A stretch of 57,342 bases of DNA, the filler included, from an uncultured virus (IMG/VR IMGVR_UViG_2049941000_000905) (lineage: Duplodnaviria > Heunggongvirae > Uroviricota > Caudoviricetes). It is 30 parts of one record of this genome, joined end to end, with 100 filler letters (N's around TTAATTAATTAA, not from the genome) between each part and the next. Parts side by side here need not be neighbours in the genome. Positions count along the whole stretch, not along the records: positions 6,730 to 8,869 come from IMGVR_UViG_2049941000_000905; 29 more parts are not named here. One strand, written 5' to 3'. Under the pieces are notes generated by a model. That model was not told the origin of the DNA and did no database searches. It saw only the letters and a program-made list of their open reading frames with translations. How positions within the stretch are numbered: position 1 is the stretch's first letter; every line of letters starts with the position of its first letter. Made by a program: the position numbers and the translations under genes. Of the stretch, positions 7,736-30,450 are shown one piece after another.

Positions 7736-7760
7736 NNNNNNNNNNTGTCCGTCCCAACCC

Positions 7761-8717
7761 GTTTGAGAGCAGTGCGATTTCATAGGGGTCTCAAACCCGA
7801 AACAGGTCTTGTTTGCACCGCAGGTCGTTTGAGAGCAGTGCGATTTCATAGGGGTCTCAAACCAGTTCGTCCGGCAACACGACGTACTACTAGTTTGAGA
7901 GCAGTGCGATTTCATAGGGGTCTCAAACTTAGAAATCGACTGGAACGAGCCGAAGATGTTTGAGAGCAGTGCGATTTCATAGGGGTCTCAAACTACCTAC
8001 ACCGTATTCCCAATCTTCAACCCGTTTGAGAGCAGTGCGATTTCATAGGGGTCTCTAACGTCTAAGATTCCAGACACGCCACACAGATCGTTTGAGAGCA
8101 GTGCGATTTCATAGGGGTCTCAAACTTCGACGTGACGTTCCGCGAGGTGACAGTGTTTGAGAGCAGTGCGATTTCATAGGGGTCTCAAACTAAGGGAAGA
8201 GCCGCCGGACAGGCTCAACCGTTTGAGAGCAGTGCGATTTCATAGGGGTCTCAAACTTTCGCCGGTCTGCGCCTTGTAGTCCTTCTGTTTGAGAGCAGTG
8301 CGATTTCATAGGGGTCTCAAACCTGTGCCATTGTAGCGCATATCGATGATGTGTTTGAGAGCAGTGCGATTTCATAGGGGTCTCAAACTGCGGTCCGTAA
8401 GGCCAACGATGTGATCCCGTTTGAGAGCAGTGCGATTTCATAGGGGTCTCAAACAGAAAAGGAGATCGGAATGGCAGTCACAAGTTTGAGAGCAGTGCGA
8501 TTTCATAGGGGTCTCAAACGAGCGAAAGGGTGATTGTCTTAGCCATCGCGTTTGAGAGCAGTGCGATTTCATAGGGGTCTCAAACTCGTCTCGGCCTGAA
8601 CTACACCACGCAGGGGTTTGAGAGCAGTGCGATTTCATAGGGGTCTCAAACCACGGTTCATTCTATCAGGACTTGTTTTCAGTTTGAGAGCAGTGCGATT
8701 TTGAAGGTCTTGAAATA
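7761..8717 (+). CRISPR. CRISPR array, type II-like: 15 repeats (14 full plus degenerate terminal), 14 complete spacers of 29-30 nt
   Basis: Repeat GTTTGAGAGCAGTGCGATTTCATAGGGGTCTCAAAC (36 nt) at 7761, 7827, 7893, 7958, 8024 (one A>T variant), 8090, 8155, 8221, 8287, 8353, 8419, 8484, 8550, 8616; degenerate copy at 8682 marks the trailer; leader side lost in gap. Confidence 0.98.
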
Positions 8718-8969: not shown

Positions 8970-9452
8970 ACCGTGCGTAACGCACAGAACGTAGGTGGGG
9001 TGTGTCTCTCCCTTTGAGCGCGGAGGACCGAATTGTACCTTCACGAACGCCATGTTCTCACGGCATCTATCCTCGATGTCCAGCTTCGCGCAGATGTCGT
9101 AGATGATGCAGTCATCCACATCGCGGGAAGATCGAGCTTCGTGGTTCCCCGACACCGCACAGAGGATGCGGTCTTTTAAGGGGGTAAGCATCTCCACCAT
9201 AAGTTTCTTCTGCTCACGAGGACGGAGGATTTCATCATACACATTAGATACAGAGGATTTGACAGCATTGTTTACTAAGTCACCCCCAAGCGTAATGTAT
9301 GCGTTCTCTTCGTTCAAAATCATCGTCCGAAATTCGCGCCATGCCGCTTCCATATGTTCTGCCGCGCCGAGGTGGATGTCCGCTATGGGATAGATTGTCA
9401 GGTCGTGTCGGTCCTCAAAGCGGTGCTGAATTAAAGTGAAGTCATTTAACAC
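8970..9452 (-). CDS. calcineurin-like metallophosphoesterase (phage), truncated
   Basis: ADIHLG, LGGDLVNN, VSGNHE, THG motifs. Confidence 0.88.
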
Positions 9453-9469
9453 AAGGCCATTGCCTCCTC

Positions 9470-9898
9470 TCACAGGAAGGTGTTGTTTCGCAAACACTCC
9501 TCATACACTTCCGCTATATATCTCTCGTTGATCTCTGCGATCTTATTCTTGAAGGTCGGATGGTCTGTGCAGTATTTATCGTAGTCCGAGATCGTTCCAA
9601 GAACATTATCGAATGATTCCTTGCTGTGTTTGATCCCAAGCCGCAGCTCATCACCGAAGCGGAGGATGTCCGAGCGATTCTGTTTCGCCCGGTTTTCCTC
9701 CGCGCTATTCTGCATTTCGGCGAGGTCTTCTTCGAGCTTGTCAACCTTTTCGATCACTTCGGCGTTGATAGCACGTCCGATCTTTTTCGCCACCCACGAC
9801 CACGGGTTTAACTTGATAGGGGATATTTGTATGATGCCGGAGATCGCCACAATTCCCCCTATGATCCAGCCCGCAAGTTGTCCGAATGATTCTGTCAT
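9470..9898 (-). CDS. phage membrane protein, possible holin-like
   Basis: N-terminal TM helix, IQISPIKLNPWSW motif, coiled coil; lysis-module position. Confidence 0.65.
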   Translation of the reverse strand: MTESFGQLAGWIIGGIVAISGIIQISPIKLNPWSWVAKKIGRAINAEVIEKVDKLEEDLAEMQNSAEENRAKQNRSDILRFGDELRLGIKHSKESFDNVLGTISDYDKYCTDHPTFKNKIAEINERYIAEVYEECLRNNTFL

Positions 9899-10011
9899 AG
9901 GCGAATACCCCCCCCCTATCAATGTCGTTACTGACTTAAATTTCCCTTTACGCGATGCGGAAACAAACCGGAAGCGACGAACTTGCATAAGACGCACTCG
10001 TNNNNNNNNNN

Positions 10012-11086
10012 TCTTGCCGTTCGCTTTTGCAATGAAGGATCCGCCGCCATCAAGACAGATGATGTCGTCGAATTCCTCGTCCTTGACCTTCTTCCAGAAC
10101 TCCATGCCATAGATGTAGTTGGCTGTCGTGGTCTGTCCCCAGATCAACCAGATCTCGCCGTCACGGACTCCCAACCAGTTCCGCCACGTCGGACGCATAC
10201 ACGACGAATCCCAACCCTGTTTCGCAACGTACTGATAGTAGTTTACGTCGTCCCCGTCACGGACCGTGGGAACGCCGGAGATCGCATACAGGCAGTTGGC
10301 TGGGGGAGCGGCAAGGTCGGCAATATAGGGGCTTCCGGAGGCCGGCACGACGAGCGTTGCAACAGTATGCCCCTTAAACTGCGAGGACGCATTATCCGCG
10401 CAAGAGATCCGCATTTTGCCGTTTTTTACGAATTTCATTACGTCCTTGCGGCCCTCTTCCGGGACGTTCCAAGGATCGCAGACGAGATTCGCGACAGGCA
10501 GCGTGTAGATCACACCGTTCGATGCCTTGTAGTTTCCGAAAAATCCTGCGTTGATGTAGTTGGCGTAGTTCGCACCAACCTTCGGCGCGTCATGGTAGAC
10601 AACACGAAAGGAATTCAGTTTCCGGAAAGTAAGTCCGTTTTTCTCGTATTTATCGGCCCGTTTTTGCACATTTATCTTATATGTGCCGAGCGCGTTGTTA
10701 ATGCCGAGCAGAGGAGCGGGGTTGACACTCATACCATTCTTACGAACCTCGAAATGACAATGCTCACCAAAAGAATACCCGGTATTGCCTTGCAGTCCTA
10801 CGACGTCCCCAGCTTTGACTTGCTGGCCAACGGTGACTTTTCGCTCCGCCATGTGACACATGAAGACGTTATATCCGTCCGCTGTGTCGATGCGGATGTA
10901 GTTGCCCCATTCCCACGTCAGATTCCCGGAGGACTTCGGAATCATCGTCGAGGACCGGACCACACCGTCACACGGAGCCACAAGCACACGGTCTCCATCA
11001 ACCCCGACAAGGTCGATCCCGTTGTGCCAGCCGGAGACGCCGTTGAGTGTTCTCTGCCCATAGGGGGAAGTCACCCAGCAAGCCAT
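10012..11086 (-). CDS. M23 peptidase plus phosphodiester-glycosidase (NAGPA-like) domain protein, probable endolysin
   Basis: HNGIDL and HCHFEVR (M23); INAGFF, ISGVP, ICLDGGGS (NAGPA-like). Confidence 0.8.
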
Positions 11087-11104
11087 GTCGGCTTNNNNNN
11101 NNNN

Positions 11105-11625
11105 GCCCGCTATATGTGACATAGCACCACGCCGTAGATGTCCCGCCGCCCGGAGATAATAGCCACCATCCTGTACGGCCAAACGCAAACCGATTCATGT
11201 TTTGCAGAAAGAACGAATACGGCATGAACCCACCAGAAGCATATCCTTGATGAGACCACTGCGTCGTGCCGTAAACCTCAATCTCATGCGGGAACCATAT
11301 TTTTCCAATATCAGCCCATCCCCATGTCGTGGCATCAGTCAGTAATTCTGCTGTGCTATATCGGTTTTCCAGCACTACTCGTTTTTCTACTATGACGTTT
11401 TTGAGATTCGTAGGCAAGAAATAGTATATTCCATCTGTTCGGTAATCTTTGGATGTCAAAGTCGGATTCACAGTTGCCGCTGATGGGACGCCACCTTGCA
11501 GACTGTTAGCGTACAAATACGCATCAGAAGCAATCCACGGGAACGCGCTACGCGATGTGCCATTGTTATAGTTCACGGGATTGATCGGTTTTCGTGTAGG
11601 CCATAATCCTGCCCAAAAATCGATA
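11105..11625 (-). CDS. DUF6273-like / C-type-lectin-fold tail-associated protein fragment
   Basis: KIWFPHEIEVYG and GWWLLSP...AWCYVTYSG motifs. Confidence 0.65.
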
Positions 11626-11635
11626 NNNNNNNNNN

Positions 11636-11841
11636 GTCGCGATCTCCTCCGAAAATTTGGAAGATAAATCTACTCCGGCGTATGGAATGCCAAATTCTAT
11701 TGGTAGATCGAGCGTTCCCGTCGTCCTTACTCCGTTTGCTTTTGTGGCTGTCTCTCCTGCCAGAAGGTTTTCCTCATCAACCGTGTCCTGTGTAACATCC
11801 ATTATTGTGCTTCCATTTAACGTCACCTTGCTAAAAGCCAT
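11636..11841 (-). CDS. tail fibre/receptor-binding protein N-terminus
   Basis: SKVTLNG.TIMDVTQDTV....LLAGETAT.ANG..TTGT motif seen in clostridial phage fibre proteins; RBS AAGGATGG. Confidence 0.6.
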
Positions 11842-11855
11842 AATGTCACCATCCT

Positions 11856-12394
11856 TTATTCAAGTGCCACAAGCTGATAGGTTACACAAGACGATTCATT
11901 CTTGTTCCCGCCCGTGATAATGCTTTGATCGATCTGCCTGTTGCTCCCAACCCATACGCCTTTGCTCGAATCGTATGTAAATGATTCGTAAACTCTGGCC
12001 TCCGAAACAGTCGGATTGACTTTACCATTCGCATTATAGATGATCGTGAGATTGTTAGAATCCACACTTGCAGGAGCACTAACAACGCCACCTTTATATG
12101 TGCAGTTATCCTCAATGTGATATACACCATAATCTGCGGTTATGGTAACAATGCAAGTGTCATCCAGAATGTCTTGATATACGGTTTCAGTCCCGTACCT
12201 GTTTACGGCATACGGCCCGTCATTCCAACAACTCCGCACTACCGCTTCGCAGTTTGCCTTGAAGACATTCTGACTGGTAATGCCAAGTACTATATTTTTG
12301 TAATTTGCTTCAAAATAGCACCCGGTTATTTCAACCCCGAACGGATTATCAATCCAAATAGCCGCACCGCACGCGGGCGTGCCGTCATTGTTGA
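11856..12394 (-). CDS. hypothetical phage tail-region protein, C-terminal part
   Basis: Open frame ending just before the next gene's RBS. Confidence 0.5.
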
Positions 12395-12569
12395 NNNNNN
12401 NNNNNNNNNNNNNNNNNNNNNNNNNNNNNNNNNNNNNNTTAATTAATTAANNNNNNNNNNNNNNNNNNNNNNNNNNNNNNNNNNNNNNNNNNNNCACTTC
12501 TACGCGGTGCTGACCTTCCCAAATGTCAATATAATCTTGTGATACAGTCTGCACTTTCGCGCTCCCTTC

Positions 12570-12932
12570 TCACTGTTCGATGAGCGGGAAAGTGATCCCT
12601 TCCCACCATTCTGTATTCGATTCGTCTATCATAAGGAACGACGCCGGATTGTTGTTGGAGTACATGGTTTTCGTGACTACGCCGGACATCGGATCAGAGT
12701 ATGTCACCGTCACAAATTCCGGGTAGATCGCGTTTAGAACGATGGACGCCTCATAGGAGGTGAGGGGGCGGCACGTTACGTCCAGCCTGATCTTTGTGGC
12801 TACCCGCCCCCTGTGCATGATGCCGTCAAGCGTTCTGCCGCTGTCAGCGGCGTCAAGGTCTGATCTCTGCCATTTGACGCCGCCTTTCGCGATATAGGGC
12901 GTCATATCAATTCCGTTGATGGTTACGGTCAT
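12570..12932 (-). CDS. phage tail protein (distal-tail-like, DUF6711-like)
   Basis: DLDAADSGRTLDGIMHRGRV...FPLIEQ; directly follows the tape measure C-terminus. Confidence 0.75.
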   Translation of the reverse strand: MTVTINGIDMTPYIAKGGVKWQRSDLDAADSGRTLDGIMHRGRVATKIRLDVTCRPLTSYEASIVLNAIYPEFVTVTYSDPMSGVVTKTMYSNNNPASFLMIDESNTEWWEGITFPLIEQ

Positions 12933-12944
12933 GTCACGCCCTCC

Positions 12945-13227
12945 TTATGAATTCTGTAATGTTGTGCCGTACATCCGGTTCATGCGGTTCTGCCCTTTGG
13001 TGACAGCATCCGAAACCTTCTGTCCGTCGAGATAGGTTGCCGTGTCTTTTGCGTTGACAGCCCGGATAATCTGCGTAGCTGCCGCGTACAGGGCAGTCAC
13101 GACGTCTCCGTTTGCGTTTCTCACACCCGCCGAGATACCTTCCACGATCTGATCGTTGTTGGCAACGGCAGTTCGGTTTCCGATGGTCCCGACAAGTTCC
13201 GGTCCGGCTTCACGGGCAATGAACATT
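12945..13227 (-). CDS. tape measure protein, C-terminal fragment
   Basis: [31 protein letters not shown] and YLDG motifs. Confidence 0.85.
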
Positions 13228-13237
13228 NNNNNNNNNN

Positions 13238-14841
13238 TACCTCGCGTCACAGGGTCGATAGTCAGCGTCCAGTTGTCCGTTGTTGTCGGCGCGAAGTTAA
13301 TTGTGCCTCCGCAGAGGATTACACGGGATATATCGCGATAATTATAGTTGTCTATACCGATTTTCACAGCATAGTCCGTGACAGAACCGGAAGATGTCGT
13401 TACTTCCGATTCCAGAATCTTATATTCACCGTAGTAGACCTTTTCAACGTGCAAGTCATCGACATCGATTCGGTCGGCAGAAATCGTTCCGCTTACGATG
13501 TTGTCTCCATTGATTACAGTTCGTCCAGAGGAGGAAAGGTCTTCAAAGGTGACCGTGCCGCGAATGACAATGCTTGCGGAGGAAAGCGTCGCATTTCCCG
13601 CTTTGAGGAGCAACGTGCTTTCCGGTAAAGGTCCGCTGTGCGCATGGAACCGAAAATAGTCTCCCGCTCCGCTGCCGCTTCCGTCTTTGCGAAACTTTAC
13701 GGTAATGAAATGGTTTCCTGCGGGAACAGTGAAATGTAGTTCCACAGGATCCTCAGACACTTCTTCGGCAAATGAATACAGAACACCGGTGGAATCTACC
13801 TCGATGCTTTTGAGTAATTCTACGTCCACCTCAGACACAATGCCAAAATCCTTGTTGATCTCTCCGAGGTTTATGCAGTCCAAATATACTACGGTATCAC
13901 TTTCAAAGTTGAAGTTGATTTTTGCGTAGGCCACGGTGGTGTTCGTTCCAACATTAGTGGATTTATACCACCCGTCACCATCGGGGGCGAATCGAACCAC
14001 ACCACCTCCCGTTGTGCTATCAACGGTCCCAACAGTCACGCCCTCGCTTGATACTGCCGTCAAGGAAAGCGTGGAAGTTGCCTGAGAGATTGCCCGATCC
14101 GTCATCGTGAAGTCAGAAGCGGATGTACCGGATTCTACAATCCAACTGATGTGGTCTGCGGCGATAACTGCCTTTGCATTGACTTCCGATACTCTGCGGT
14201 TGATCGCTCTCCGCGAGACGGATTCGTACGGATATTCATGATCGAGTTCCTCGTCTCCGGGGGAGGTAATGTCCGACGCACAGAGGCTGTCAAGCCGCAT
14301 GGTCTGGGTTGCAAGAATGCCCGTGGTCGTACCTACCGTGGCCGTACCTACGGTCACATGGTCTCCGATCTCATAGGCCGGGTCGAGGATGGCTCCGTCT
14401 GCCGTTAAGGGGGTATAAATAAACCCATCGAGGGCATCGAGAATGTCTTCGGCAATATCTTCGCCGTCTTCGGTCGTGACTACCGGGAGAGCAACTTCAA
14501 GCGTCCGTCCGGTATCATCCCCGGCCTCGACGTAAAGTTCCTCCGATAGGTCAAGTTCGACTTTAGAGAAGGCCTGATAAGGCTCCGAGATATGGTACGT
14601 CTTCGCCGCAAGTCCGAGGTCTACGGAATCTACTGTATCGTTCACACGGATCAGTCTCAGCTTGCCCTCGTCGGTGATGACCCAGTTGCCGCAGTTCGCG
14701 ACGGCGATATAGCCGAGCAGTTCCCGCATGGTGTAGTCGGTCGGCAGCTGCATTTCATAGGTCTGGTTGAGAGTAGTTCTCGCATCGATGGTCAGGCCCA
14801 TCATATCCGCAATCTCGTCCGCTACATCTGCCATTGTCTTG
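13238..14841 (-). CDS. tail spike/baseplate minor structural protein fragment
   Basis: YTMRELLGYIA..CGNW.IT.EGKLRL, DPAYEIGD, TVINGDNIVSGTI motifs. Confidence 0.75.
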
Positions 14842-14941
14842 NNNNNNNNNNNNNNNNNNNNNNNNNNNNNNNNNNNNNNNNNNNNTTAATTAATTAANNN
14901 NNNNNNNNNNNNNNNNNNNNNNNNNNNNNNNNNNNNNNNNN

Positions 14942-15800
14942 TCAGCAAGTTTGTTCGCGATGGCTTGCAATTCTCTGGTTTGCGTGAGTGTGAGATTTTC
15001 GTTTTCGTCAATCTCAAAAGCCTTTTTGATAAGCTCGTGGACACCGGCGAAACTGGATTCGATCTCCCTAATTTTAGTATTGATCGTTCCGATTTTCGCT
15101 TCAATATCTGCTGTCACTTCAATGGTGATTTTCCATTGTTCTGCGCTCTTTTGAATCTTTTGCCCGATTTCCGTTTCGAGCATTTTCGCTTTTAATGCCT
15201 CATATTTTCCGAGCGCAAACGCAACAGCGTCAATGATGATGGAAGCTGCCGTTCCTACGATCAACCCGGCGGGACCGAGCAGAAGATACATTCCACCGAT
15301 AAGGATGCCGTTCCCGATGATTGTTTCAAGCACGTTCCACGGAGTTATTTCGCCCTTGCCGAGATCGAACGCGCCGTCTGCCGATAAAACAGCCCCTGTC
15401 AGAACAAGAGCAACTCCAATCGGAACTTTGAGGAGTTCAAAATTCTTTACGAGACCAGCAATCGTGTCAATGAATCCTGTTGCCAGTTTCCACCCAAGCA
15501 GTGCAACGGCGATCAGTCCCGCTGTTTTTAGAATATCCTCGAACGTGATGCCAAGGTCATCCATAACCTTCTTGATCCCGTCGATGATCTTCTTGACCCG
15601 TTCTCCCCATTTCTTTGCGCTGTCAGATGCAATCTCCATCGTGACATCTTCAAACATGGTGAGCGGGGAAGGATTCGCGCCGGTGATCGCAGAGGTCTTT
15701 TCCTTCGCTTTCGCGGATGCGTCTTCGAGGATGTTCAGCTCGTCCAGCCCGGAGATAAGGGACTTCACGGCCTTTGCTTCTTCCTGCGTTGCCTCCGTGG
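14942..15800 (-). CDS. tape measure protein, middle fragment
   Basis: GLDELNIL motif, hydrophobic Gly/Ala helices and coiled coil. Confidence 0.8.
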
Positions 15801-15812
15801 NNNNNNNNNNCG

Positions 15813-16148
15813 TTAATTTTCGGCATTCTCGCCCACCTCCTTAAATTCTATGAATGGAGTAAGTGCCTCAATATCCGCGACGGAGAGGCTGATATTGTCA
15901 TCCAACGGAATCGTAATCTTCGTCTCTTCCCAGTCGATCTCTAAGTTCAGCAGTTCGTTGTACTCTCCGACGGGAACTTTATACTCATGTTTGGCTTTCA
16001 GTTCGGTCTCTTTCGCTTTGAAGAAGTCCAGTTCTTCGTTGACGCGGCGTACCATCTTAGACAGACGGTATGCCGTGCGGAGAGGAAGGTCCTGATGGAT
16101 CAGCTTCTGGAAAGCGGAGATCGAGTTGAGAAGATGTATATATTTCAT
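15813..16148 (-). CDS. hypothetical phage protein (111 aa), contains protospacer for spacer 3
   Basis: RBS GAGG, MKYIHLLNSISAFQKL..DLPLRTAYRLSK. Confidence 0.75.
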   Translation of the reverse strand: MKYIHLLNSISAFQKLIHQDLPLRTAYRLSKMVRRVNEELDFFKAKETELKAKHEYKVPVGEYNELLNLEIDWEETKITIPLDDNISLSVADIEALTPFIEFKEVGENAEN

Positions 16149-16281
16149 GTTTACCTCACGCGAGTTGAACGCCATTCCAGAACAAATGTCCGTTCTGGCA
16201 GTTAAAGTATCCGGTAGACTGGGAATCACCGTCTTCTCCGAGGTACAGTCTGCTGAAGAATCTGAGATTGCNNNNNNNNNN

Positions 16282-16886
16282 GCACCGGCGAAGTCCGTAC
16301 CAATGTACTTGCTGTACTGATAGAGGTTTCCGATTCCTTCGGAAAAAGCCTGTGTTATCTCGTTGAATATGGCACGGATAATTCGGTATCTAAGGAATCG
16401 TTTGAGAAACTCATCAAATTTCTTCAAGCCGGGGAACAGTTTATCAAGATTCCCACGGAAGTGGTCGAAACGAGTTGCAAGACTTTCCTGCCCCTCTTTC
16501 CACTGATCGAACGCGCCTCGAATCTGATCCGCCTCTTCCTTAAACTGCTCAAACTGTTCAAGGTTCATCCCCTTAAACAGCTTGTCGTTCGTTGTGGCGT
16601 TCGCCCACTCTTTAATGAAGTATGGGCCGTAACGCTCGTATTGCTGAGAAGAAATCCCTTGCATGGCTTTCGGGAATTTCTTCGCAATGGCCTCTAACTG
16701 ACTGAAAGCCTCCGAGGTCTTCTTGATGTCTTTTGTGTAATCGCGAAAGCGAACTTGCGTGTTATAAACCGCCTTATTCGTCTCGTATAATTTGCCTTTC
16801 CACTCTGTTACGCACTTAACGAGACGGTATATATGCTGTTCTGCTTGCGCAGTGTCGGCGGTAACTTTTATGTTTAAGGATTCAAC
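16282..16886 (-). CDS. tape measure protein, N-terminal fragment
   Basis: VESLNIKVTAD N-terminal motif, helical, YR.IR...EGIGNLYQYS; follows chaperone genes. Confidence 0.75.
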
Positions 16887-17102
16887 NNNNNNNNNNNNNN
16901 NNNNNNNNNNNNNNNNNNNNNNNNNNNNNNNNNNNNNNNNNNNNNNNNNNNNNNNNNNNNNNNNNNNNNNNNNNNNNNNNNNNNNNNNNNNNNNNNNNNN
17001 NNNNNNNNNNNNNNNNNNNNNNNNNNNNNNNNNNNNNNNNNNNNNNNNNNNNNNNNNNNNNNNNNNNNNNNNNNNNNNNNNNNNNNNNNNNNNNNNNNNN
17101 NN

Positions 17103-17592
17103 TCCTTTCTCTTTCGCGCTAACTGGACGTCGTGCATCCATTGTTCCATCGCATTCTGTTGCTTTTCGTATTCCTGACGCTGTTTCCGCTCTTCCTGCTC
17201 CCGCATTTCCTTGGCCGTAACCGGATAGGGTTCTTCCGCATAGGGNNNNNNNNNNNNNNNNNNNNNNNNNNNNNNNNNNNNNNNNNNNNNNNNNNNNNNN
17301 NNNNNNNNNNNNNNNNNNNNNNNNNNNNNNNNNNNNNNNNNNNNNNNNNNNNNNNNNNNNNNTAGACATACAGACCTTGCCGCCAAAGATCGCGCTCGTT
17401 GCGTCGTCTCTGTATCTCGTAGGCTCTCCGGTATGCTCTGACGGCTGTACAGTCTCCCCGCCAGAACAAATGATAGGGCATTCCGAGGGCAAGGTAGTAC
17501 GGTAAGTGTTCTTCAAATATGGAGGAAACAGAGGGAGGGGGACTTTGGTGATCCCCCTCCTCCGAAGGGCCACTTACCAGCTCTTCTTCCAC
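17103..17592 (-). CDS. tail assembly chaperone, downstream (T-like) frame
   Basis: PYYLALGMPYHLFWRGD..WRQGLY; overlaps the upstream chaperone in the -1 frame. Confidence 0.75.
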
Positions 17593-17906
17593 ACTGCGTT
17601 TTTTTCGTTGTCTCCCTCGTCAGCATCGAAGAGGGTCTCGACGGTTTCGGCGTACATCTCGCCGAGGGCCGCGATGAGGTCGCTCTTCTCTGGGACGCTC
17701 GACATGATTTTGTCGATCTGCGCGTTTTTCAGCTTGCGGTGATGCGCGAAGAACGCATACCGGATCAGGATCGGAACCATGATGTTCGGCTTGTCCCCGA
17801 TCTCGCTGAGAATCAGGCCGCTCTGTTCAGCAGCTCTCGCCGCCTCGCGGGTGTATTCGAGGGTGTAGTCCGCTCCGTCGAGCGAAAGGGTGATTGTCTT
17901 AGCCAT
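17574..17906 (-). CDS. tail assembly chaperone (G-like), contains protospacer for spacer 12
   Basis: 110 aa, RBS AGGAGG, between major tail and tape measure genes; slippery A AAA AAC near 3' end. Confidence 0.8.
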   Translation of the reverse strand: MAKTITLSLDGADYTLEYTREAARAAEQSGLILSEIGDKPNIMVPILIRYAFFAHHRKLKNAQIDKIMSSVPEKSDLIAALGEMYAETVETLFDADEGDNEKNAVWKKSW

Positions 17907-17936
17907 CGCTAAAACCTCCTGTAAAATAGTTCAGAG

Positions 17937-17991
17937 TTAAGTGGACGCCTTGGTCGGTCCTTCGGAGCAGTTGATCGTGATAGTCATCTCC
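17937..17991 (-). CDS. probable major tail protein, extreme C-terminus
   Basis: EMTITINCSEGPTKAST* immediately upstream of the chaperone; inferred from position. Confidence 0.45.
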
Positions 17992-18001
17992 NNNNNNNNN
18001 N

Positions 18002-18190
18002 TACCGGGTTCTTGACCACCACATCATTGTCGCCGTCGTATTCTGCCTCAGAGAAGCGTATCGTCGCGCTCTGGACGCCGATCTGTGCCAGCTCCTCCAT
18101 GAAGACTTCGACTTTGCGCCGCCGCTTGGATAGATCGAAGAGCGGGTGGTTTAATACCCGCTTGATTCCTTCGACTTCAAGACTTATCAC
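18002..18190 (-). CDS. head-tail joining/neck protein, N-terminal fragment
   Basis: Position and GTGA overlap with upstream gene. Confidence 0.55.
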
Positions 18191-18582
18191 GACACATTCA
18201 CCTTCTTCAAGGCGTAGCTCAACACGTTGATCGACTTATCGACTTTGACTACGATATGATCGTACAAGAGCTGCCCCGCGTCGTTGTACTCTACGGGACG
18301 GTCGATAATCAGCACGGAGTATTCATCCATAGGACAATCCATATCCGTGATAACAAGCGTTTTGTCGTATCGAAGATCGATACCGAAGTCCTCCACGGCA
18401 CTCTGAGAGTTGATACCGTATCTGCCGTTGAATCCGGCGTCAAGGTTTCCGTAGAGAAGTACCGGTTCGCTATATAACGGTCTGCGTTCCCCGGTGGGGT
18501 TGCCCTGTCCGTCGAGGATGTCTTCCTCGCCGAGATACAGGGCATACCACATGGGGATCTGATTTCGTTTAAGTGCCTTCAT
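18187..18582 (-). CDS. head-closure/head-tail adaptor protein
   Basis: GNPTGE...YSEPV, FGIDLRYDK, YDHIVVKVDKSIN. Confidence 0.7.
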   Translation of the reverse strand: MKALKRNQIPMWYALYLGEEDILDGQGNPTGERRPLYSEPVLLYGNLDAGFNGRYGINSQSAVEDFGIDLRYDKTLVITDMDCPMDEYSVLIIDRPVEYNDAGQLLYDHIVVKVDKSINVLSYALKKVNVS

Positions 18583-18819
18583 GGACAACACCTCCTACGA
18601 CGCCACAGTAGGGGACAATCCCCCGGAAGTATTCCTCCGGGACGTCCGCCGAACCGTATTTCCGGTCGATACCGTTTTCGTTGTGGGAGGTCTGCCCTTC
18701 TGCTCCTCGTTTGTTGAGGAGATATGCGGCAATGTCGATCTGATTCTCCGCATACTGTTCGGGCATGTTTGTCGTCTCGCTCTGGAAGGGATAGAGACGA
18801 CGCAGGATTTTTGTTTTTG
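18569..18819 (-). CDS. head-tail connector protein, C-terminal part
   Basis: NKRGAEGQTSHNENGIDRKY motif typical of Firmicutes phage connectors. Confidence 0.8.
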
Positions 18820-18919
18820 NNNNNNNNNNNNNNNNNNNNNNNNNNNNNNNNNNNNNNNNNNNNTTAATTAATTAANNNNNNNNNNNNNNNNNNNNNNNNN
18901 NNNNNNNNNNNNNNNNNNN

Positions 18920-19756
18920 TGCCCATGAGGGCGAAGACGTTGCCGGTAGCGCGAGTGTAGTCACCTTCCGCATGGAAGCCAATGAGGTTGGTCACGCCCT
19001 GAGTGGTGTAGTTCAGACCCATAGCGGCGAAGTTGCTGTCACCCGGATCGACGTAGTAGAGGTCGATGTTGTCAACCGGGAGGGCGATCACAGTGCCGGA
19101 GGGAATGTCGGATTCGGAGAGGAGGAACAGGGTACGATAGCCCATGAAGTCCTCGACGTAGGACACGCCGAATCTGTTCTGAATGGTGATCTGAGCCGCG
19201 CCGAGGTAGTTGTACGCGTCGAGGATGTTGGCGAAACCGACGACTTCGGTGACGGTCTTTCTCATTTCCTGGAACTTGTTGATGACCTGACCCTTCGCCA
19301 TAGCGAGAGCCATCTGCCACGTGGTGGCGGTATAGGTCAGTTCGCCGGAACGGAGGAAGGGNNNNNNNNNNTGTAGAAGGAGGTGAGAACCTTGTTCTGA
19401 AGTTCGTTGAGGAACGCTTCGTCGGTCTTCTGGATCGCGACAGCCGCGCCGAACTTATCGACCGCTTCGATGGAAACGCTCTTCGCGTACTTTTCGATGG
19501 TGACATCGGAGTACACGACGGGTTCCACGGTGGCGCGGGAGAAGGGGATCAGTTCACCTTCGCCGACGGTGTCCTGCAGAGTGATGGACGCTCTGGAAGC
19601 AACCAGCTTCGTGCCGGGAGTCTTGCGGATGGGACGGGAGATACCCATGATGTTCATGAGGGCCGCCCAGTTGTTGCCGAATACGGTTACGAAATCCTGT
19701 TCACGCACGGATACGGTGATGTCCTGCGCTCTGGTGAGATAATCAAGCTGTGCCAT
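18920..19756 (-). CDS. major capsid protein (split by a short gap, 3' end missing)
   Basis: VGEGELIP.S, IEKYAKSVSIEAVDKFG..VA..KTD, NRFGVSYVEDFMG; follows scaffold gene. Confidence 0.85.
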
Positions 19757-19777
19757 AGTTTGTTTCCTTTCTTGTTG

Positions 19778-19943
19778 TTAACTTGACTGAGCAAGTTTAG
19801 CGAGTGCCTCCTGACGCTGACCGGCGTCGAGGACGTATCGCCCATGCTCGTCTGTTTTATAGATTTCATCGCGGGTAAGTACCTTCTCCCCGCCTCCCGC
19901 CGGACGGGGCATGGATTTGAGCGACGCGGCCTGCTGCTCTTTC
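19778..19943 (-). CDS. scaffold protein, C-terminal fragment
   Basis: LKSMPRPAGG...LTRDEI..RQEAL directly before the capsid gene. Confidence 0.65.
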
Positions 19944-20973
19944 NNNNNNNNNNNNNNNNNNNNNNNNNNNNNNNNNNNNNNNNNNNNNNNNNNNNNNNNN
20001 NNNNNNNNNNNNNNNNNNNNNNNNNNNNNNNNNNNNNNNNNNNNNNNNNNNNNNNNNNNNNNNNNNNNNNNNNNNNNNNNNNNNNNNNNNNNNNNNNNNN
20101 NNNNNNNNNNNNNNNNNNNNNNNNNNNNNNNNNNNNNNNNNNNNNNNNNNNNNNNNNNNNNNNNNNNNNNNNNNNNNNNNNNNNNNNNNNNNNNNNNNNN
20201 NNNNNNNNNNNNNNNNNNNNNNNNNNNNNNNNNNNNNNNNNNNNNNNNNNNNNNNNNNNNNNNNNNNNNNNNNNNNNNNNNNNNNNNNNNNNNNNNNNNN
20301 NNNNNNNNNNNNNNNNNNNNNNNNNNNNNNNNNNNNNNNNNNNNNNNNNNNNNNNNNNNNNNNNNNNNNNNNNNNNNNNNNNNNNNNNNNNNNNNNNNNN
20401 NNNNNNNNNNNNNNNNNNNNNNNNNNNNNNNNNNNNNNNNNNNNNNNNNNNNNNNNNNNNNNNNNNNNNNNNNNNNNNNNNNNNNNNNNNNNNNNNNNNN
20501 NNNNNNNNNNNNNNNNNNNNNNNNNNNNNNNNNNNNNNNNNNNNNNNNNNNNNNNNNNNNNNNNNNNNNNNNNNNNNNNNNNNNNNNNNNNNNNNNNNNN
20601 NNNNNNNNNNNNNNNNNNNNNNNNNNNNNNNNNNNNNNNNNNNNNNNNNNNNNNNNNNNNNNNNNNNNNNNNNNNNNNNNNNNNNNNNNNNNNNNNNNNN
20701 NNNNNNNNNNNNNNNNNNNNNNNNNNNNNNNNNNNNNNNNNNNNNNNNNNNNNNNNNNNNNNNNNNNNNNNNNNNNNNNNNNNNNNNNNNNNNNNNNNNN
20801 NNNNNNNNNNNNNNNNNNNNNNNNNNNNNNNNNNNNNNNNNNNNNNNNNNNNNNNNNNNNNNNNNNNNNNNNNNNNNNNNNNNNNNNNNNNNNNNNNNNN
20901 NNNNNNNNNNNNNAAATAAAAACGGGGCTATGGTCAGATATACTTGACCGATAGCCCCGTTGGACTGTTGTTC

Positions 20974-21144
20974 TCACCCGTTGGCGGGAACCTCTCTTAT
21001 TTCTTTCGTGACTTTTGCTTTCACTTCGAGGATGACAACGCTGTCTTTCCGCTTTCGGATTTCTACGTTGCCGCCCTTGCGCAGGATCGCGTTAATCGTT
21101 TCCAGATCCGCCGCCGTCACTTGCGGAATCGTCTTGTCCGGCAT
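20974..21144 (-). CDS. small hypothetical phage protein (56 aa)
   Basis: RBS GGAGG; INAILRKGGNVEIRKRKD; follows portal. Confidence 0.65.
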   Translation of the reverse strand: MPDKTIPQVTAADLETINAILRKGGNVEIRKRKDSVVILEVKAKVTKEIREVPANG

Positions 21145-22409
21145 CCCGTTCCTCCTTCCGCAGAAGTTCCTGATACTGTTCCTCGCTCGTCTTGTAGGCG
21201 AGGTCGGGATCCGCGAAGAGGCCGCAGACTTCGTATGCCAGCTTCCGTGCGATCTTGTCGTTGTCAAGCATCGTGGTAAGTACCTGAGACTTGACCTGGA
21301 TATTCTCGTAATTGCGACGCGTGAACCGGATCTCGATGTCGGACAGCTTGATGTCTACGTTCCGCAGAGTACGGCAGATATTCAAGGCGATCCGAAGAAT
21401 CCGCTTTTCGCTCTTCTTGTAGAGCATCTCCGTCTTCCGCGCTCTTGCTTCCGCGTCTTCCCAGCCGTCCCGGTAGATCGTAGCAATGCCGGTATCGCTC
21501 GTGCTTGAANNNNNNNNNNCCTTCCGGCAGCAGAAGCGCACCCTGTTCTTTGAGGGAGTTGAGCTTCTCTTCGTCGATGTTCGCTCCGATGAACACCATG
21601 AACGCCTGTACGAACTGTTCGATGGCGTCCTCGCGGTTTGATTCGACCGCGTTAATTGTGTCGAGGAGGCTGATAACGATCTCGAATGCGCCGAGACGAG
21701 CCTTGTTCGCCGGGTATTCGACAATCGGGATCTCTCCGCACGGATTGTCCGCCTCTTCTATGACGGTATCGTTTGCGATCTTGTAGAACTTATCCTGCGT
21801 ATATACGCTGAATACCCGCTCTCCGTTTGCGTTCTTAACATACGTCGCCGCGAGAAGGGGACGGCGGGAGATTTCGTTCGTGTAGACGATAAAGGTGTTA
21901 CGAGGGTCCAGAGCATAGACCTCGAACGGGGAGGAATCCTTTTCCGTGTCTTCCCGGTCCGGAAGGATGATCTTATAGCCCGTGCCGCAGACGTTGAACC
22001 ATTCCGCTACCTCTACGTCCACGCTGCTTGCGTCTTCCTCGAACATATATGTGTTGAGCGTTCCGATCCCGTCCATAACCGAGCTGTCGTCCGACCGGCT
22101 GACATACTGGATCGGTTCGCCGAGCAGATAGCCCACGTTGAAGGACACGATCTGGAAAGCGTGATTCACGGACACCTTCGCGTTCAATTCCTGCCGGAAC
22201 TGCTTTATCTTGTTGAAGATGGGCGTGTTCCCTTTATAATACTGCCAGAGATAGTCGATCTCCCAGCGGTTCTGCTCGTGGACAGGGAAGACGGCATTGA
22301 TCGTATCGACGATAGACTGAGACCTCATCTTCTCCGGGTCGTAGGTAATCTCCCTACGTCCACTTAGCATGATGCCGAGACCAGCCGTGGTGTAACCCGC
22401 ATTATCCAT
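21092..22409 (-). CDS. portal protein, SPP1 gp6-like (split by gap)
   Basis: YYKG, NHAFQIVSFNVGYLLGEPIQY, LDPRNTFIVY, IPIVEYPAN..RLGAFE, IEIRFTR. Confidence 0.9.
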
Positions 22410-22444
22410 GCGCCGCTTCCTCCTTCCGGATAGTTTTATAACTC

Positions 22445-22473
22445 ATGTTACATATTTTGAGTTTCTGTGTCAA
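22445..22473 (-). promoter_or_regulatory. possible internal promoter upstream of portal
   Basis: Minus strand TTGACA-17bp-TAACAT in an AT-rich intergenic gap. Confidence 0.45.
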
Positions 22474-22501
22474 TATACGAATATGGTAAAATACGTTTAC
22501 C

Positions 22502-22835
22502 TCAGAATGGACGTTGTATAACTCGCGCTTCCTTCGCGTATAAGGACTGAACAAAGTCCGCCGACATGGAGAACGCGTCGGGAACGTCGTCGTGCGGATT
22601 CTTCCCGGCCACGGTGTAGGAACAGAGCATTTGAAGGGCCTTGCGGTATTCCGGCTTGTCCTTCAAAGAGGTATCATCCTTGAACAGGAAGTGTTCCTTC
22701 ACAAACGGAGAATCCACGATAATGCGCGTTTCCTTGTTGGCCGTGGAATACTTCGTCGTAATGTGTGTGATGCCGCCCTTCTTCTTGACCTCTTCCTGCA
22801 CCTTCTCCGCGATCTTGCCACCCGCGCTGTTCGAT
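22502..22835 (-). CDS. terL: terminase large subunit, C-terminal nuclease fragment
   Basis: SNSAGG, NKETRI, GKNPHDDVPDA. Confidence 0.88.
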
Positions 22836-22935
22836 NNNNNNNNNNNNNNNNNNNNNNNNNNNNNNNNNNNNNNNNNNNNTTAATTAATTAANNNNNNNNN
22901 NNNNNNNNNNNNNNNNNNNNNNNNNNNNNNNNNNN

Positions 22936-23587
22936 TCCATTTCCATACCCTCGACACCAATCTGGTTTTTCCTCGCGAAAATCACGCGCTGATAGCCGCT
23001 TGATGTGCCGAAATTCGACTTGAAAATCACAGACCAAATGTCTGGTTCATCTTCAAGCCCTGTAAAAGTAATGGAGGTCGCGCCGCTTCCGACTTGTACA
23101 TCTTTCGTATCGATATTCGCTGACGAGCCGCCGTAGGTATATTCCAGATAATGTTCAACCGAAACAAAATTCGGACCAGAGCTGGTAATCGTCAGCGTAC
23201 CATTAGAGTAAGATTTCGCGAACGACGACGAATTATACGTGACTTGCGCATTGCTTGTGTTTGTGATAGTCTGTGCATGAATTGTTGTTCCGTCGTAGAC
23301 AATCGCTGCAACCTTCGCAGGAGTTCCTGTCGATACCGTACTGTCCGGCATTATGCTAAACGACGTAGGCTCGCCCTTTAGCCCGGTAAAAACCAGAGTT
23401 GTTGTACTTGAAGGAATGCCCACCGCCTCATCCGTCTGCATCCCACCGCCACCGCCTCCGGCAACATTGACATCGACGGATGCATATTCTGTGACATCGT
23501 ACGTTCCGTTCTGCGTGATGCTCTGCGTACCGGACACGACGATGCCGTTGATGTGACGGATCGTGCCGCCGTGAGAATCCAGCTCGT
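22936..23587 (-). CDS. fibre/decoration-like Ser/Thr/Gly-rich phage protein fragment
   Basis: ITQNGTYDVTEYASVDVNVAGGGG linker plus internally repeated FTGL..EP domain. Confidence 0.6.
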
Positions 23588-23597
23588 NNNNNNNNNN

Positions 23598-23959
23598 TGT
23601 GCCGCTCTTACGGCCTCGTGATTCGCGAATACCGTTGCGTCGTCGCCGTTGACATACGCCTCTGCCGTCTTCCCGGCGAGATCGTCGTCGAAACCGAGCT
23701 TGATGTACGATGCTTTCAGATTCGCAACACGTTTCTCTTTCTCCGATTCCTGGATCTTCTTTTCAAGTTCCGCGATACGGTCTTCGTAACCCTTCGCGGT
23801 CTTCTTGAATGCAGCAGCTTCGCTGTTCGCCTTGGATGCCGCGTTCTTGTAGCGGTCGATTTCGGAAGTATCGTCCACGTCGAGAGCGAGGATCGCTTCG
23901 ATGCGCTCTTCCGCAGTCATGTTTTCGTAGCCTTCGATTTTGGATGTGTCGATCTTCAT
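23598..23959 (-). CDS. scaffold protein (DUF4355-like), N-terminal part
   Basis: MKIDTSKIEGYENMTAEE, KANSEAA, LGFDDDLA.KTAEA. Confidence 0.8.
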
Positions 23960-24126
23960 GTGTGCCTCCGCGTTTGTTGAAGCGGTTCACTCCGCTGTGT
24001 TGTCCGTTATTAAGCGTTTTCTCGCTNNNNNNNNNNNNNNNNNNNNNNNNNNNNNNNNNNNNNNNNNNNNTTAATTAATTAANNNNNNNNNNNNNNNNNN
24101 NNNNNNNNNNNNNNNNNNNNNNNNNN

Positions 24127-24441
24127 GAAGCGTTTCTCCGGCTCCCGGTTCAGTTCGATGTACTGCATATAGCTGTCGAACCGAAGACCTTGCGCCTCCA
24201 GCAGAAGCGTTCCCCGGAATATCCGTCCGATCTCCTCCCGGTCCTCGACAGGACCCCGGATCCTCTCCGCACACGCTTTCTTCAAAGCGTCCGTTGCTTC
24301 CCATTTATCCCGTCCGTTATCCATGTTCTGGCAGACGGTGTACAGGGCCTGATAGTTCCGTAAGGATGCGGGATCGCTCTGTATCGACCGGATACAGGAC
24401 AGCGCGACAGCTCGCAGCTTGACTTGATCCTCGTATCCCAT
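24127..24441 (-). CDS. terL: terminase large subunit, N-terminal fragment
   Basis: LLLEA..FDSYMQYIELNREPEKRF motif. Confidence 0.7.
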
Positions 24442-24444
24442 ACG

Positions 24445-24708
24445 TTATTTCCCCGCAATCTCTCCGGCACAGGCCGCGTAACCGGCGAGGTCTATAAAGG
24501 AATCGTCCGTGCCGGTCCCGGTCTTGATGCGCCCGATCTTGAACAGGCACATCATAATCCCGACGTCCTTTGCGCTAATATCCTGATCCAGATATGCGCT
24601 CCAAAACTCTGCTATTGCCGCAAAGTTGTCCTCTGCCTTCCCGTAATCCTGCTCTCGCTGGCCGCAGACCATTGCCTTGGCTGTGTCGAGAATCTCACTT
24701 CTGAGCAT
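24445..24708 (-). CDS. DUF6378-like phage protein
   Basis: REQDYG.AEDNF..IA..WS, KIGR, DSFIDLAGYAAC. Confidence 0.85.
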   Translation of the reverse strand: MLRSEILDTAKAMVCGQREQDYGKAEDNFAAIAEFWSAYLDQDISAKDVGIMMCLFKIGRIKTGTGTDDSFIDLAGYAACAGEIAGK

Positions 24709-24720
24709 ATTGTACCTCTC

Positions 24721-25201
24721 TTATTGTTCAACAATAAAGAAATTCATGACGCCGCACACATACGACGTACTTCTTGATCTTGCGCGGACGGTAATCGTGG
24801 CGTTTGCCGCAAAAGTAAGCGTCTCTTCGCAGTTCATACCATTTCGGTTATTATTGTTATATGTCCATGATGTGTGTGCCGATCCGAGCGCGGTTGATCC
24901 ATTATACAACTGCGATCCTGACGTGCCTGACGTTGTGTTTCTGTCCATTGACCAGTAGCATTTATATGTCCCGGCCTTGCTGACCTTAATAGATAGGTTG
25001 GTTGCGGTATATGACGTTGCAGAGACCTCGTAACGTCCTGTTGCGTACTGGATATTTTTGCTGCTTCCGCCGCCAGTATAAGTACCAGTAACGGATGTAA
25101 CGCAGTCAGCGTCGGTGGAATCACCAACGGTTACGACAACCCCGGACTTTATGTTATCGGCAGTAAGGTTTGATGTCGTTACCGCTTTGATTGTCTGCGT
25201 T
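24721..25201 (-). CDS. fibre-like phage protein, C-terminal part
   Basis: ADNIKSGVVV..G..VTGTYTGGGS motif then beta-rich domain; open from gap to stop at 24721. Confidence 0.55.
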
Positions 25202-25211
25202 NNNNNNNNNN

Positions 25212-25637
25212 GACGTTGAAGGATGGATCGTCTGCGCAGCCTGTGTCGTGACGGATGCTGTCAGGGAAACAGATGAATTGCCCGCCGTCCCGGACGAAAC
25301 ATACCCGGCTGTCGTGACGCTCGGCGTGACGGAGACAGTCTTCGTCAACGTGAGCGTGTTGGTTCCAGTCGTGACCGTTGCCGCAGTCCCGGAGATTGAT
25401 GCCGGAGCCGTGACCGTGCCGCTTGCAACAGACTTGGATGCCGCAGTTGCGTAGGTTCCAGCCGGGGCTGTTACAGTCGCACCGGAAACAGTCAGGTCGG
25501 ATGATGTGCGAGGTGTTCCCCCGGTCGGCACATTGACCGTAACCTCGGAATAACCGTCGGCATTGTCATCGGCAGGATCATAAGTTCCGTTTTCCGTGAC
25601 AGTTTTCGGCACAAGAACCGATCCCCCGCCGCCTCCA
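25212..25637 (-). CDS. Thr/Ser-rich fibre-like phage protein fragment
   Basis: KTVTENGTYDPADDNADGYSEVTVNVP, DLTVSGATVTAPAG.Y repeats. Confidence 0.6.
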
Positions 25638-26256
25638 NNNNNNNNNNNNNNNNNNNNNNNNNNNNNNNNNNNNNNNNNNNNTTAATTAATTAANNNNNNN
25701 NNNNNNNNNNNNNNNNNNNNNNNNNNNNNNNNNNNNNCACCATTCCTTGCGAAATTTGGGGCTTTCTCGAGGCAATGCACGGGCATGTGTGCGTATACGC
25801 GCACGCGTGTGTGTGGGATCGCGCCGGGACGCCAGGACGCGGCCAGAGCAGGGAATCGGCAAAACACACAAAACAGACTGTTTGTTTTTGTGCATTCATA
25901 CAAACATTGCAAAACAATCGTCCGGACGATATCTCTTTACAGTTTGTTCATGGTTTGTTCAAGCAATCGTCCGGACGATCTGATACAATCTCTCACGACA
26001 GCAACGAAACCGACGCAAGAGAGATCCGGCAGATCCCCGATACCGATCCACTCATTGACAACTGAATATCAGCCTCTCCTCGTCAAATGGCGAACCGCAA
26101 CTGTTGCATTCCGCGACAGGCAAGAACACGGTTTGACAAGTGAGGCGGTGACTCCCTTTCAAATGTCCCTGTTTACAGGGACTCATGGATACAAGCCCGC
26201 TTGTATATGTGAGTCTCTGTAAAAGAGAACATTTATTTACAAAAGGAGAACAAAAC

Positions 26257-26899
26257 ATGTATACTCTTGAATCTATCCGTAAAGTCATTCATAGCTATTG
26301 CAATCTTCGCAAGGTATATGATCCTATGGATGTAGAGGACATCAAGCTGTCGATCTCCGACGGCAATCGTAAAATCGGCCGTGTCATGAACGTCTCTCTC
26401 ATGCCTATCGTCACTTGTAAAAACTGCGGTGAATGCCGTTTCTTCTGCTACGACATCAAGGCATGTTTACAGTATGCGAACGTGATTGACGCAAGAACAC
26501 GGAATACAGTCATCCTCAAAAAGGATCGCGACGAATTCTTCCGCCGAATCGATGACAAAATGTCACGGAGACGCACAAACAAATATTTCCGCTGGCACGT
26601 TTCCGGAGATATCGTCGATCTCGACTATCTCTGTAGAATGATTGAGAACGCAAGAAACCATCCTGATTTCGTCATTTGGACATATACCAAAAACTACGAA
26701 ATCGTGAATGCCTACTGTGCATTATACGGGAAAGACAACATTCCGGAAAACTTTTCAATCATGTTTTCCGAATGGAAAGGACTGGCAATGCCTAATCCGT
26801 ATAACTTCCCCGTGTTCGCATGCCGCATGCCAGACGAGGACGAACTCGAATACGCTCGTCAGATGTGGAAATGCCCCGGGAACTGCGACGTCTGTAAAG
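26257..26899 (+). CDS. GP88-like Cys-rich (radical-SAM-related) phage protein
   Basis: RBS AAGGAG; GN.KIG, TCxxCxxCxxxCY, FRWHVSGD, WTYTK, CPG.CxxC. Confidence 0.75.
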
Positions 26900-26968
26900 N
26901 NNNNNNNNNCTCACGCCGCCCGATTCCTGTACAAAAGGAAAAATGAAATCTTGAGAGGAGACTTTGAG

Positions 26969-27206
26969 GTGAATATCTTGATAGCTTGCGAAGAATCGCA
27001 GAGGGTCTGCACTGCTTTCCGTGAAAACGGTCACAGAGCTTTCTCCTGTGATATGCAGGAATGCTCCGGGGGACACCCTGAGTGGCATATCTGCGGAGAC
27101 TGCTTGCCTTTACTGGACGGGAAATGTAACTTCACGACACAGGACGGCAAGCCCCACCACATCGACGGCAGATGGGATATGATAATCGCCCACCCCACCA
27201 TGCACC
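26969..27206 (+). CDS. phage DNA cytosine methyltransferase, N-terminal fragment
   Basis: ILIACEESQRVC.AFR..GH.AFSCD...GGHPEWHI.GD...WDMIIAHP. Confidence 0.85.
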
Positions 27207-27430
27207 NNNNNNNNNNAGAGTGGACTTGCCCGTTCCGGGAGGAAGAGAGATGGAGAGTATATCCAGCTCGTCATCTATCAGTCTTTGCATTGCCTGACAG
27301 ACGGGCATAAGCTGTTCACGGCGGGGTATCNNNNNNNNNNNNNNNNNNNNNNNNNNNNNNNNNNNNNNNNNNNNTTAATTAATTAANNNNNNNNNNNNNN
27401 NNNNNNNNNNNNNNNNNNNNNNNNNNNNNN

Positions 27431-27734: not shown

Positions 27735-27834
27735 NNNNNNNNNNNNNNNNNNNNNNNNNNNNNNNNNNNNNNNNNNNNTTAATTAATTAANNNNNNNNNN
27801 NNNNNNNNNNNNNNNNNNNNNNNNNNNNNNNNNN

Positions 27835-28235: not shown

Positions 28236-28237
28236 AA

Positions 28238-28581: not shown

Positions 28582-28618
28582 TACAAATGAAAATCTATTC
28601 CACGAAGGAGGGCCGCAT

Positions 28619-28855: not shown

Positions 28856-28860
28856 AACTA

Positions 28861-28890: not shown

Positions 28891-28920
28891 GGCATGGAGG
28901 AAACCGAAAGGAGAAACACC

Positions 28921-30444: not shown

Positions 30445-30450
30445 AAATTG

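Follow-up and report, generated by a model that had tools for sequence, protein, structure and literature searches.

Whether a CRISPR array and a phage that lie in one stretch of DNA also shared one cell is the question raised by a 57,342-nt record of an uncultured virus (IMGVR_UViG_2049941000_000905; the whole stretch is referred to here as the window). One of the spacers in the array is identical to a site in the phage, so that the pair can be taken either as a case of self-targeting or as the trace of an encounter between a phage and a host lineage that reside in separate cells. The analysis presented here shows that a host and a phage of a rumen community are genuinely linked through CRISPR, a type of result that is well known and ordinary, and the apparent self-targeting rests on a co-location that is an artefact of concatenation. 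Our preferred explanation is that the array and the phage are scaffolds from separate cells that are connected by an ordinary host-phage immunity link, to which we assign a probability of about one half.

Anatomy of the CRISPR array

The array (7761..8717, + strand) contains 14 intact copies of a 36-nt repeat (GTTTGAGAGCAGTGCGATTTCATAGGGGTCTCAAAC), of which the one at 8024 has a single mismatch, together with a degenerate 15th repeat that carries 10 mismatches and occupies the right end of the array (8682-8717). The 14 complete spacers are each 29-30 nt in length and unique. On the leader side the array runs on into an N10 gap (7736-7745), directly after which a partial spacer of 15 nt is found (7746..7760, +). 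The scaffold that carries the array measures just 2.1 kb, including this unsized gap.

The surroundings of the array were searched for components of a CRISPR-Cas system. None of the 90 translated frames of the window matched a Cas family (0/90; of the original 93 frames, three within the array were dropped and two were replaced by the frame on the opposite strand), the sequence left of the array is not that of cas9, and no anti-repeat of the kind expected for a tracrRNA was found in the window or in contigs L018 and L019 with up to 5 mismatches over 22 nt. The two ORFs that flank the array have no Pfam match even at E values up to 1, no PHROG match, and no relatives in the viral contig collection or among the genome contigs. 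For the flanking ORF at 6731-7108, the sole homologues are unnamed proteins of ~230 aa, one of which is encoded on a 118-kb contig. The array scaffold is without a match in G002, the closest bacterial relative of the htrA piece of the record (see below). Piece 5 of the record, which stands directly before the array scaffold, contains a fragment of an IS66-family transposase (5803-6564, +), also with no match in G002.

The full repeat gave 0 exact matches in the species-representative genomes. Its 22-nt 5' half gave two, both solitary and outside arrays, in a Bacteroidaceae MAG (L001, 221-242) and in a sheep-rumen Clostridia MAG (L002, 2736-2757), compared with an estimate of ~0.07 chance matches of the 22-nt half-repeat for that collection. 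Such half-repeats may have been left behind by arrays since lost, or may be repeat units that stand alone.

Spacer 12 and its protospacer

The 30-mer GAGCGAAAGGGTGATTGTCTTAGCCATCGC occurs exactly twice in the window, at 8520-8549 and at 17880-17909, in both cases on the + strand and with 0 mismatches, and the identity between array and phage amounts to 31 nt when the C that ends the upstream repeat is included. A chance match of the 30-mer was seen in 0 of 100 dinucleotide-preserving shuffles, and the perfect 30/30 match claimed by the sequence-only reading is thus borne out. The first copy is spacer 12 (8520..8549, +), which is the 12th of 14, has two further complete spacers between it and the trailer end, and is flanked by two perfect 36-nt repeats. 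The second copy is the protospacer (17880..17909, +), whose strand would be the non-target one for a crRNA read on +. The PAM of a type II system sits 3' of the Cas9 protospacer, and this place is taken here by TAAAACC (17910..17916, +), a candidate PAM if it is functional. Among the viral contigs the 30-mer had 0 exact matches; a 21-mer of the protospacer had one unrelated, high-GC match among metagenome contigs (L003).

A 110-aa ORF (17574..17906, -) has its ATG (17906-17904, -) and its first 9 codons within the protospacer, together with the 3 nt that precede the ATG, and spacer 12 is antisense to the mRNA of this target. The ORF is preceded by a GGAGG ribosome-binding site and matches Pfam DUF5055 (E 4e-22); its likely function as a chaperone is indicated by its position and by a frameshift signal. 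An in-phase slippery site near the 3' end of a gene, together with an open -1 frame, is a hallmark of tail-gene frameshifts. The target ORF has the slippery heptamer A AAA AAC (17598..17604, -) in phase (X XXY YYZ); ~25 nt separate it from the stop codon, and the -1 frame that follows is open. Both the heptamer and the open frame are kept in the viral relative L004. The order of genes in L004 is a 144-aa ORF, the DUF5055 gene (6001-6330), an overlapping -1 ORF (6312-6773) and a 935-aa tape measure, and the target gene in the window has L004-like neighbours. By position alone, the 144-aa ORF of L004 would be the tail tube gene. The earlier statement that the match lies over the start codon of the gene for a tail assembly chaperone holds: the gene lies between the presumed tail tube gene and the tape measure, has the in-phase A AAA AAC and is followed by an open -1 frame. 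From its position and slippery site it is predicted to encode a tail assembly chaperone of the gpG/gpGT type. Its only family match was Pfam DUF5055; PHROG and the sequences of solved structures (at E up to 1) gave none, and the protein had 0 relatives in the genome contigs.

A Cas13d effector was also considered for the array, as the 3' end of the repeat recalls Cas13d and spacer 12 is antisense. This candidate was rejected, since a related array adjoins Cas9 and spacers 3 and 13 are sense to their genes.

The phage block

Pieces 7-17 of the record (8970..34002) are collinear with G001, a complete viral contig of 43,110 bp, from 4.0 kb to 42.0 kb of the latter. The matches show 69-84% nucleotide identity, all lie on the + strand and follow a nearly rising order, and protein matches confirm the collinearity. 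The genes of the block include an M23 endolysin-like peptidase, tail proteins, the tape measure, the chaperone and a head protein fragment, as well as an SPP1-type portal, a fragment of the large terminase, an integrase-like recombinase and early genes. Judged by sequence, pieces 7-17 are one siphovirus. No piece outside 8970-33990 has a match to any G001 protein, and comparison of pieces 1-6 with G001 yielded noise. The "terminal repeat" of G001 is a 127-bp end overlap, which points to a circular assembly.

G001 encodes two tyrosine recombinases, one within 908-2847 beside a CI-like repressor and the other at 29656-30603 between the packaging and early genes. The CI-like repressor and integrase (0.9-2.8 kb) adjoin the lysis module, and their presence in G001 indicates that the phage family is temperate. 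This CI/integrase module has no counterpart anywhere in the window; only the second recombinase has one, a tyrosine recombinase/integrase fragment (29701..30225, +) with phage-homologous DNA on both sides. The phage block of the window starts at the lysis module. No convincing host-phage junction (att) was found in the window, and bacterial sequence is attached to the phage scaffolds only in the form of a 182-nt contig at 34003-34184, which is a variant of htrA and is discussed below.

Among GenBank phages, the phage segment has only one match, of 98 nt at 79% identity. Relatives at roughly 90-99% identity are present in other sequencing runs; the phage family was found in runs X1, X5, X6 and X9, each from another study, with X1 and X5 labelled as bovine gut metagenome and X6 as gut metagenome.

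Piece 15 also contains a match to the Twister-P5 ribozyme (RF02684; 28514-28581, +) with a score of 45.7 bits against a gathering threshold of 37.6 (E 2.4e-6). It lies between small ORFs, upstream of an Arc-like repressor and an integrase-like gene.

Further spacers against the phage family

Three other spacers have diverged matches to the same phage or to its relative. Spacer 3 (7929..7957, +) matches the phage at 25 of 29 positions (15916..15944, -), inside a segment that is misplaced in the record (15811-16271; see below). Spacer 13 (8586..8615, +) matches a major head protein fragment at 23 of 30 positions (18997..19026, -), and spacer 8 (8257..8286, +) matches G001 at 24 of 30 (41348-41377), with nothing corresponding to it in the window. 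For spacer 12 the match to G001 is 24/30, with differences at positions 1, 4, 7, 10, 13 and 22. These six differences are all spaced in threes, the pattern of wobble drift and not of targeted escape.

Altogether, 4 of the 14 spacers produce 5 matches with at most 7 mismatches to the phage of the window or to G001, compared with a mean of 0.01 matches and a maximum of 1 in 100 shuffled spacer sets. The owner of the array therefore has a history with this phage family. No clear PAM consensus emerges among the four 3' flanks TAAAACC, TACGATT, CGTAGTA and CGTGACC. Spacers 13, 3 and 8 had 0 exact matches each in the viral contigs, and the spacers of this array and of the array in the relative G100 (see below) had 0 matches among GenBank phages.

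Host lineage and Cas9 link of the repeat

The bacterial htrA piece of the record has 92% protein identity to a rumen MAG named "uncultured Ruminococcus sp." (L005, genome G002). Neither the repeat (0/5) nor Cas9 (0/5) was found in G002 and four other relatives, and G002 is without this phage. Across 401 sampled genomes of the family to which G002 belongs, the repeat occurs with at most 3 mismatches in two, and relatives of the portal protein occur in eight, at just 35-47% identity. An assignment of the host by way of related prophages was rejected on the grounds of these distant portals, of the chaperone protein without genome relatives and of the absence of the phage from G002.

The assignment of the array to Cas9, made previously from the sequence, is upheld through two relatives that carry the same repeat. 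In G012, whose repeats are 2 mismatches away from the repeat of the array, a Cas9 ORF (TIGR01865, E 3e-200) lies on the same strand as the repeats, the first of which follows its end after 13 nt; the N-terminus of cas9 is on another contig. In G100, cas9 is a 1,375-aa open frame that covers the whole model and is followed by cas1 (TIGR03639), cas2 and the start of csn2 (TIGR01866); the repeats of G100 are 3 mismatches from the array repeat and lie on another contig than the cas genes. The Cas9 of G100 matches solved Cas9 chains of SpCas9 size over its full length, the best being 9jwk_A (E 2e-197), with many SpCas9 entries after it. A tracrRNA candidate with an anti-repeat, three 3' hairpins and a T-run (z = -3.6) is encoded upstream of this cas9, on the opposite strand. 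By way of G012 and G100, then, the repeat family is classified from sequence as type II-A.

The orientation of cas9 and tracrRNA in these same-repeat relatives also indicates that the crRNA is read on the + strand. Together with the degenerate repeat at the right end of the array, it places spacer 12 near the trailer and among the old spacers, in agreement with what had been proposed before.

Composition and origin of the record

It should be noted that the window is not one contiguous sequence. It is interrupted by 29 linkers of 100 nt, each N44-TTAATTAATTAA-N44, which are artificial and divide it into 30 pieces of 0.3-3.9 kb; the pieces carry additional N10 or sized gaps. The array is on piece 6 (6730-8869) and its target on piece 9 (14942-18819), three artificial linkers apart: one where the array scaffold gives way to the first scaffold of the phage (8870..8969) and two more at 12395-12494 and 14842-14941. 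Among public sequencing runs, 20 runs from 13 studies are listed with part of 6730-16729, and only two of them, which come from one sample labelled bovine gut metagenome, have at least half of its words. Runs X7, X8 and X10-X20, with small word shares, were left out of the evidence, as were those parts of piece 9 that lack cover in X5, X6 and X9. The bovine-gut sample may be the source of the record and is therefore counted as non-independent support. In run X1, an independent public assembly agrees with the phage sequence of the window throughout 17363-17991 (0 differences); as X1 may likewise be the source sample, this agreement confirms the sequence and not the biology.

The record appears to be a set of metagenome scaffolds, and several observations bear on how far its joins can be trusted. 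The 182-nt contig 34003..34184 (+), which is scaffolded behind an N10 gap onto the end of the last phage piece, has ~90% identity (163/182 positions by manual count) to the htrA sequence at 3642-3823 in piece 4. The differences fall mainly at third codon positions, and the two have a 46-mer in common. Two variants of one htrA stretch at ~90% identity mean that the record is mixed, and the presence of the variant on a phage scaffold is due either to strain mixing or to a mis-join. Segment 15811-16271 is placed by X1 on a 9,980-nt contig and the rest of piece 9 on a 13,420-nt contig; the segment maps to G001 10371-10712, 4-5 kb away, and not between 15.3 and 15.7 kb. Since this segment is misplaced, the scaffolds of the record are unreliable. 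The N10 gap at 17992-18001 conceals 1,114 nt according to the X1 contig, so that the N10 gaps of the record are unsized.

The order of the pieces nevertheless has structure. Pieces 2, 3b and 4 map at 91-93% identity to one 6-kb stretch of G002 contig 29, and the 11 phage pieces have nearly the order of G001 (two neighbours are swapped) in the same orientation. These ordered phage pieces and the clustering of bacterial pieces in G002 show that the order of the record is non-random, and it may follow the connectivity of the assembly graph.

The window also contains fragments of 16S and 23S rRNA genes on the minus strand, which are without operon order, and several near-duplicate stretches, common to pieces 24, 25, 27 and 29, which coincide in part with the 23S match or lie next to it. 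These rRNA fragments and near-duplicates lie at 45476-45723, 47894-48252, 51662-51711 and 54251-54344, at 46104-46431, and at 48032-48549. The rRNA fragments at 45.5-54.3 kb have k-mers in common with one another.

Same cell or separate cells

The suggestion of self-targeting had started from the presence of array and phage in the same window. This premise gives way, as the two are on separate scaffolds divided by artificial linkers in a metagenome-like record with two htrA variants. Its fallback, namely that the match assigns the phage to a host lineage, is the reading that the data support, with 4 of 14 spacers matching the phage family.

According to the separate-cell explanation, the array would be a fragment of a type II-A (Cas9) locus of a Ruminococcus-like bacterium, with the crRNA read on the + strand. 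Spacer 12 would have been acquired from a temperate-type siphovirus of the roughly 43-kb class, which would still circulate in the same community. If Cas9 and a tracrRNA are present and TAAAACC is an accepted PAM, crRNA-12 would direct cleavage at the start codon of the chaperone gene; by analogy with SpCas9-type enzymes, the double-strand cut would fall ~3 bp 5' of the PAM, near 17906/17907. Array and phage, most likely from different cells, would have been brought together through the concatenated scaffolds of a strain-mixed metagenome assembly. The immune lineage would carry the spacer, and the phage would persist in sensitive or lysogenic sister strains or would escape via the PAM. What speaks against separate cells is that the occurrence of the phage in one record with host scaffolds would fit a prophage, if the record is a bin formed by composition and coverage.

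True self-targeting, with the phage residing in the cell of the array as a prophage or episome and maybe integrated nearby, is in our judgement possible but doubtful. Survival of such a cell would call for an anti-CRISPR of the phage, a missing or broken cas9 (that is, an orphan array), or a TAAAACC flank that is no working PAM. The array scaffold does stand directly before an ordered, co-oriented phage block, in a record in which neighbouring pieces elsewhere map close together in a relative; however, three artificial linkers lie between array and target and no physical join is seen, and the neighbourhood could be due to common k-mers alone (a 31-mer for array and phage, a 46-mer for htrA and its variant). 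The first genes of the block are those of the lysis end, adjoining the predicted attP region of G001, and because the lysis module of G001 is next to the CI-repressor/integrase and the expected attP site, such a start is the order that an integrated prophage would show. Against this, no att junction is seen, and the CI/integrase module of G001 is without a counterpart in the window. A bacterial contig resembling htrA has been scaffolded onto the opposite end of the block, but the misplacement of 15811-16271 makes the scaffolds unreliable, and the record, which has two variants of the htrA stretch, appears to be metagenome-derived. What lies to the left of the array differs from the arrangement in G012 in that it is not cas9, which hints at an orphan array, and the self-targeting of prophages is common, as reported in PMC7708048; the closest relative, G002, by contrast lacks the phage, the repeat and Cas9.

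It is highly improbable that the array resides on the phage itself or on an adjacent mobile element and is used against competitor phages, with the match reflecting a merged sister phage. Such an arrangement could be seen in the array scaffold adjoining the phage block, with the IS66 transposase in piece 5 before it, and the array scaffold is unmatched in the closest bacterial relative; yet its two flanking ORFs have no viral-contig relative or PHROG match, and the unnamed ~230-aa homologues of the ORF at 6731-7108 include one on a 118-kb contig. Related phage variants do co-occur, at roughly 90-99% identity in other runs, but the complete relative G001 is without an array, pieces 1-6 give only noise against it, and in G012 and G100 the repeat family sits on the chromosome and is linked to Cas9.

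Comparison with known systems

The AcrIIA inhibitors of Listeria were reportedly discovered via self-targeting. If co-residence of array and phage should be true, the present phage would be a place to seek a new Cas9 inhibitor. We consider it unlikely, all the same, that a rumen Ruminococcus-like lysogen with an intact type II-A system of SpCas9 size and a usable PAM would be found to carry this phage, perhaps next to the array on the chromosome, as a prophage with a new, undescribed AcrIIA-type inhibitor of this Cas9 lineage. In the passages of Nobrega et al. (2020, PMC7708048) that give frequencies, self-targeting spacers are placed in about one fifth of CRISPR-carrying bacteria, and more than half of the self-targeting cases map to prophages. 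The present pair resembles the prophage cases in those passages (PMC7708048) in that a spacer perfectly matches a temperate-type phage in the same record. The cases described there, however, are isolate genomes with spacer and target on one genome, whereas here we have metagenome scaffolds with artificial joins and strain variants. We would like to emphasize that concatenated draft records can create apparent self-targeting, and that adjacency in such records is not linkage.

The assignment of hosts through spacer-protospacer matches is standard practice for uncultured phages from metagenomes. The present data are of this type, comprising an exact 30-nt match and three diverged matches between one array and one phage family from the same sample. 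They connect an uncultured siphovirus family, by way of CRISPR, with a host lineage that is Ruminococcus-like and has a type II-A array. The pairing of a Ruminococcus-like type II-A array with this siphovirus family appears to be new to the GenBank phages and viral contigs that were searched.

The array shares its dimensions (36-nt repeats and 29-30-nt spacers) with the type II-A arrays of S. pyogenes and S. thermophilus CRISPR3. Its repeat starts with GTTTGAGAGC and ends with CAAAC, which we take to resemble the GTTTTAGAGC...CAAAAC repeats of S. pyogenes and S. thermophilus CRISPR3. The gene set of G100, with its tracrRNA candidate, is like that of an S. pyogenes-type locus (tracrRNA, cas9, cas1, cas2, csn2 and array). 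On the array scaffold and in the window, in contrast to such a locus, no cas gene or tracrRNA was found. G012 differs from it in another respect: at the locus covered by L018 (124-3476, contig 82) and L029, cas9 abuts a short 6-repeat array with no cas1, cas2 or csn2 in between. In the array of G012, two of the repeats carry an extra G and two neighbouring spacers differ from each other by one base.
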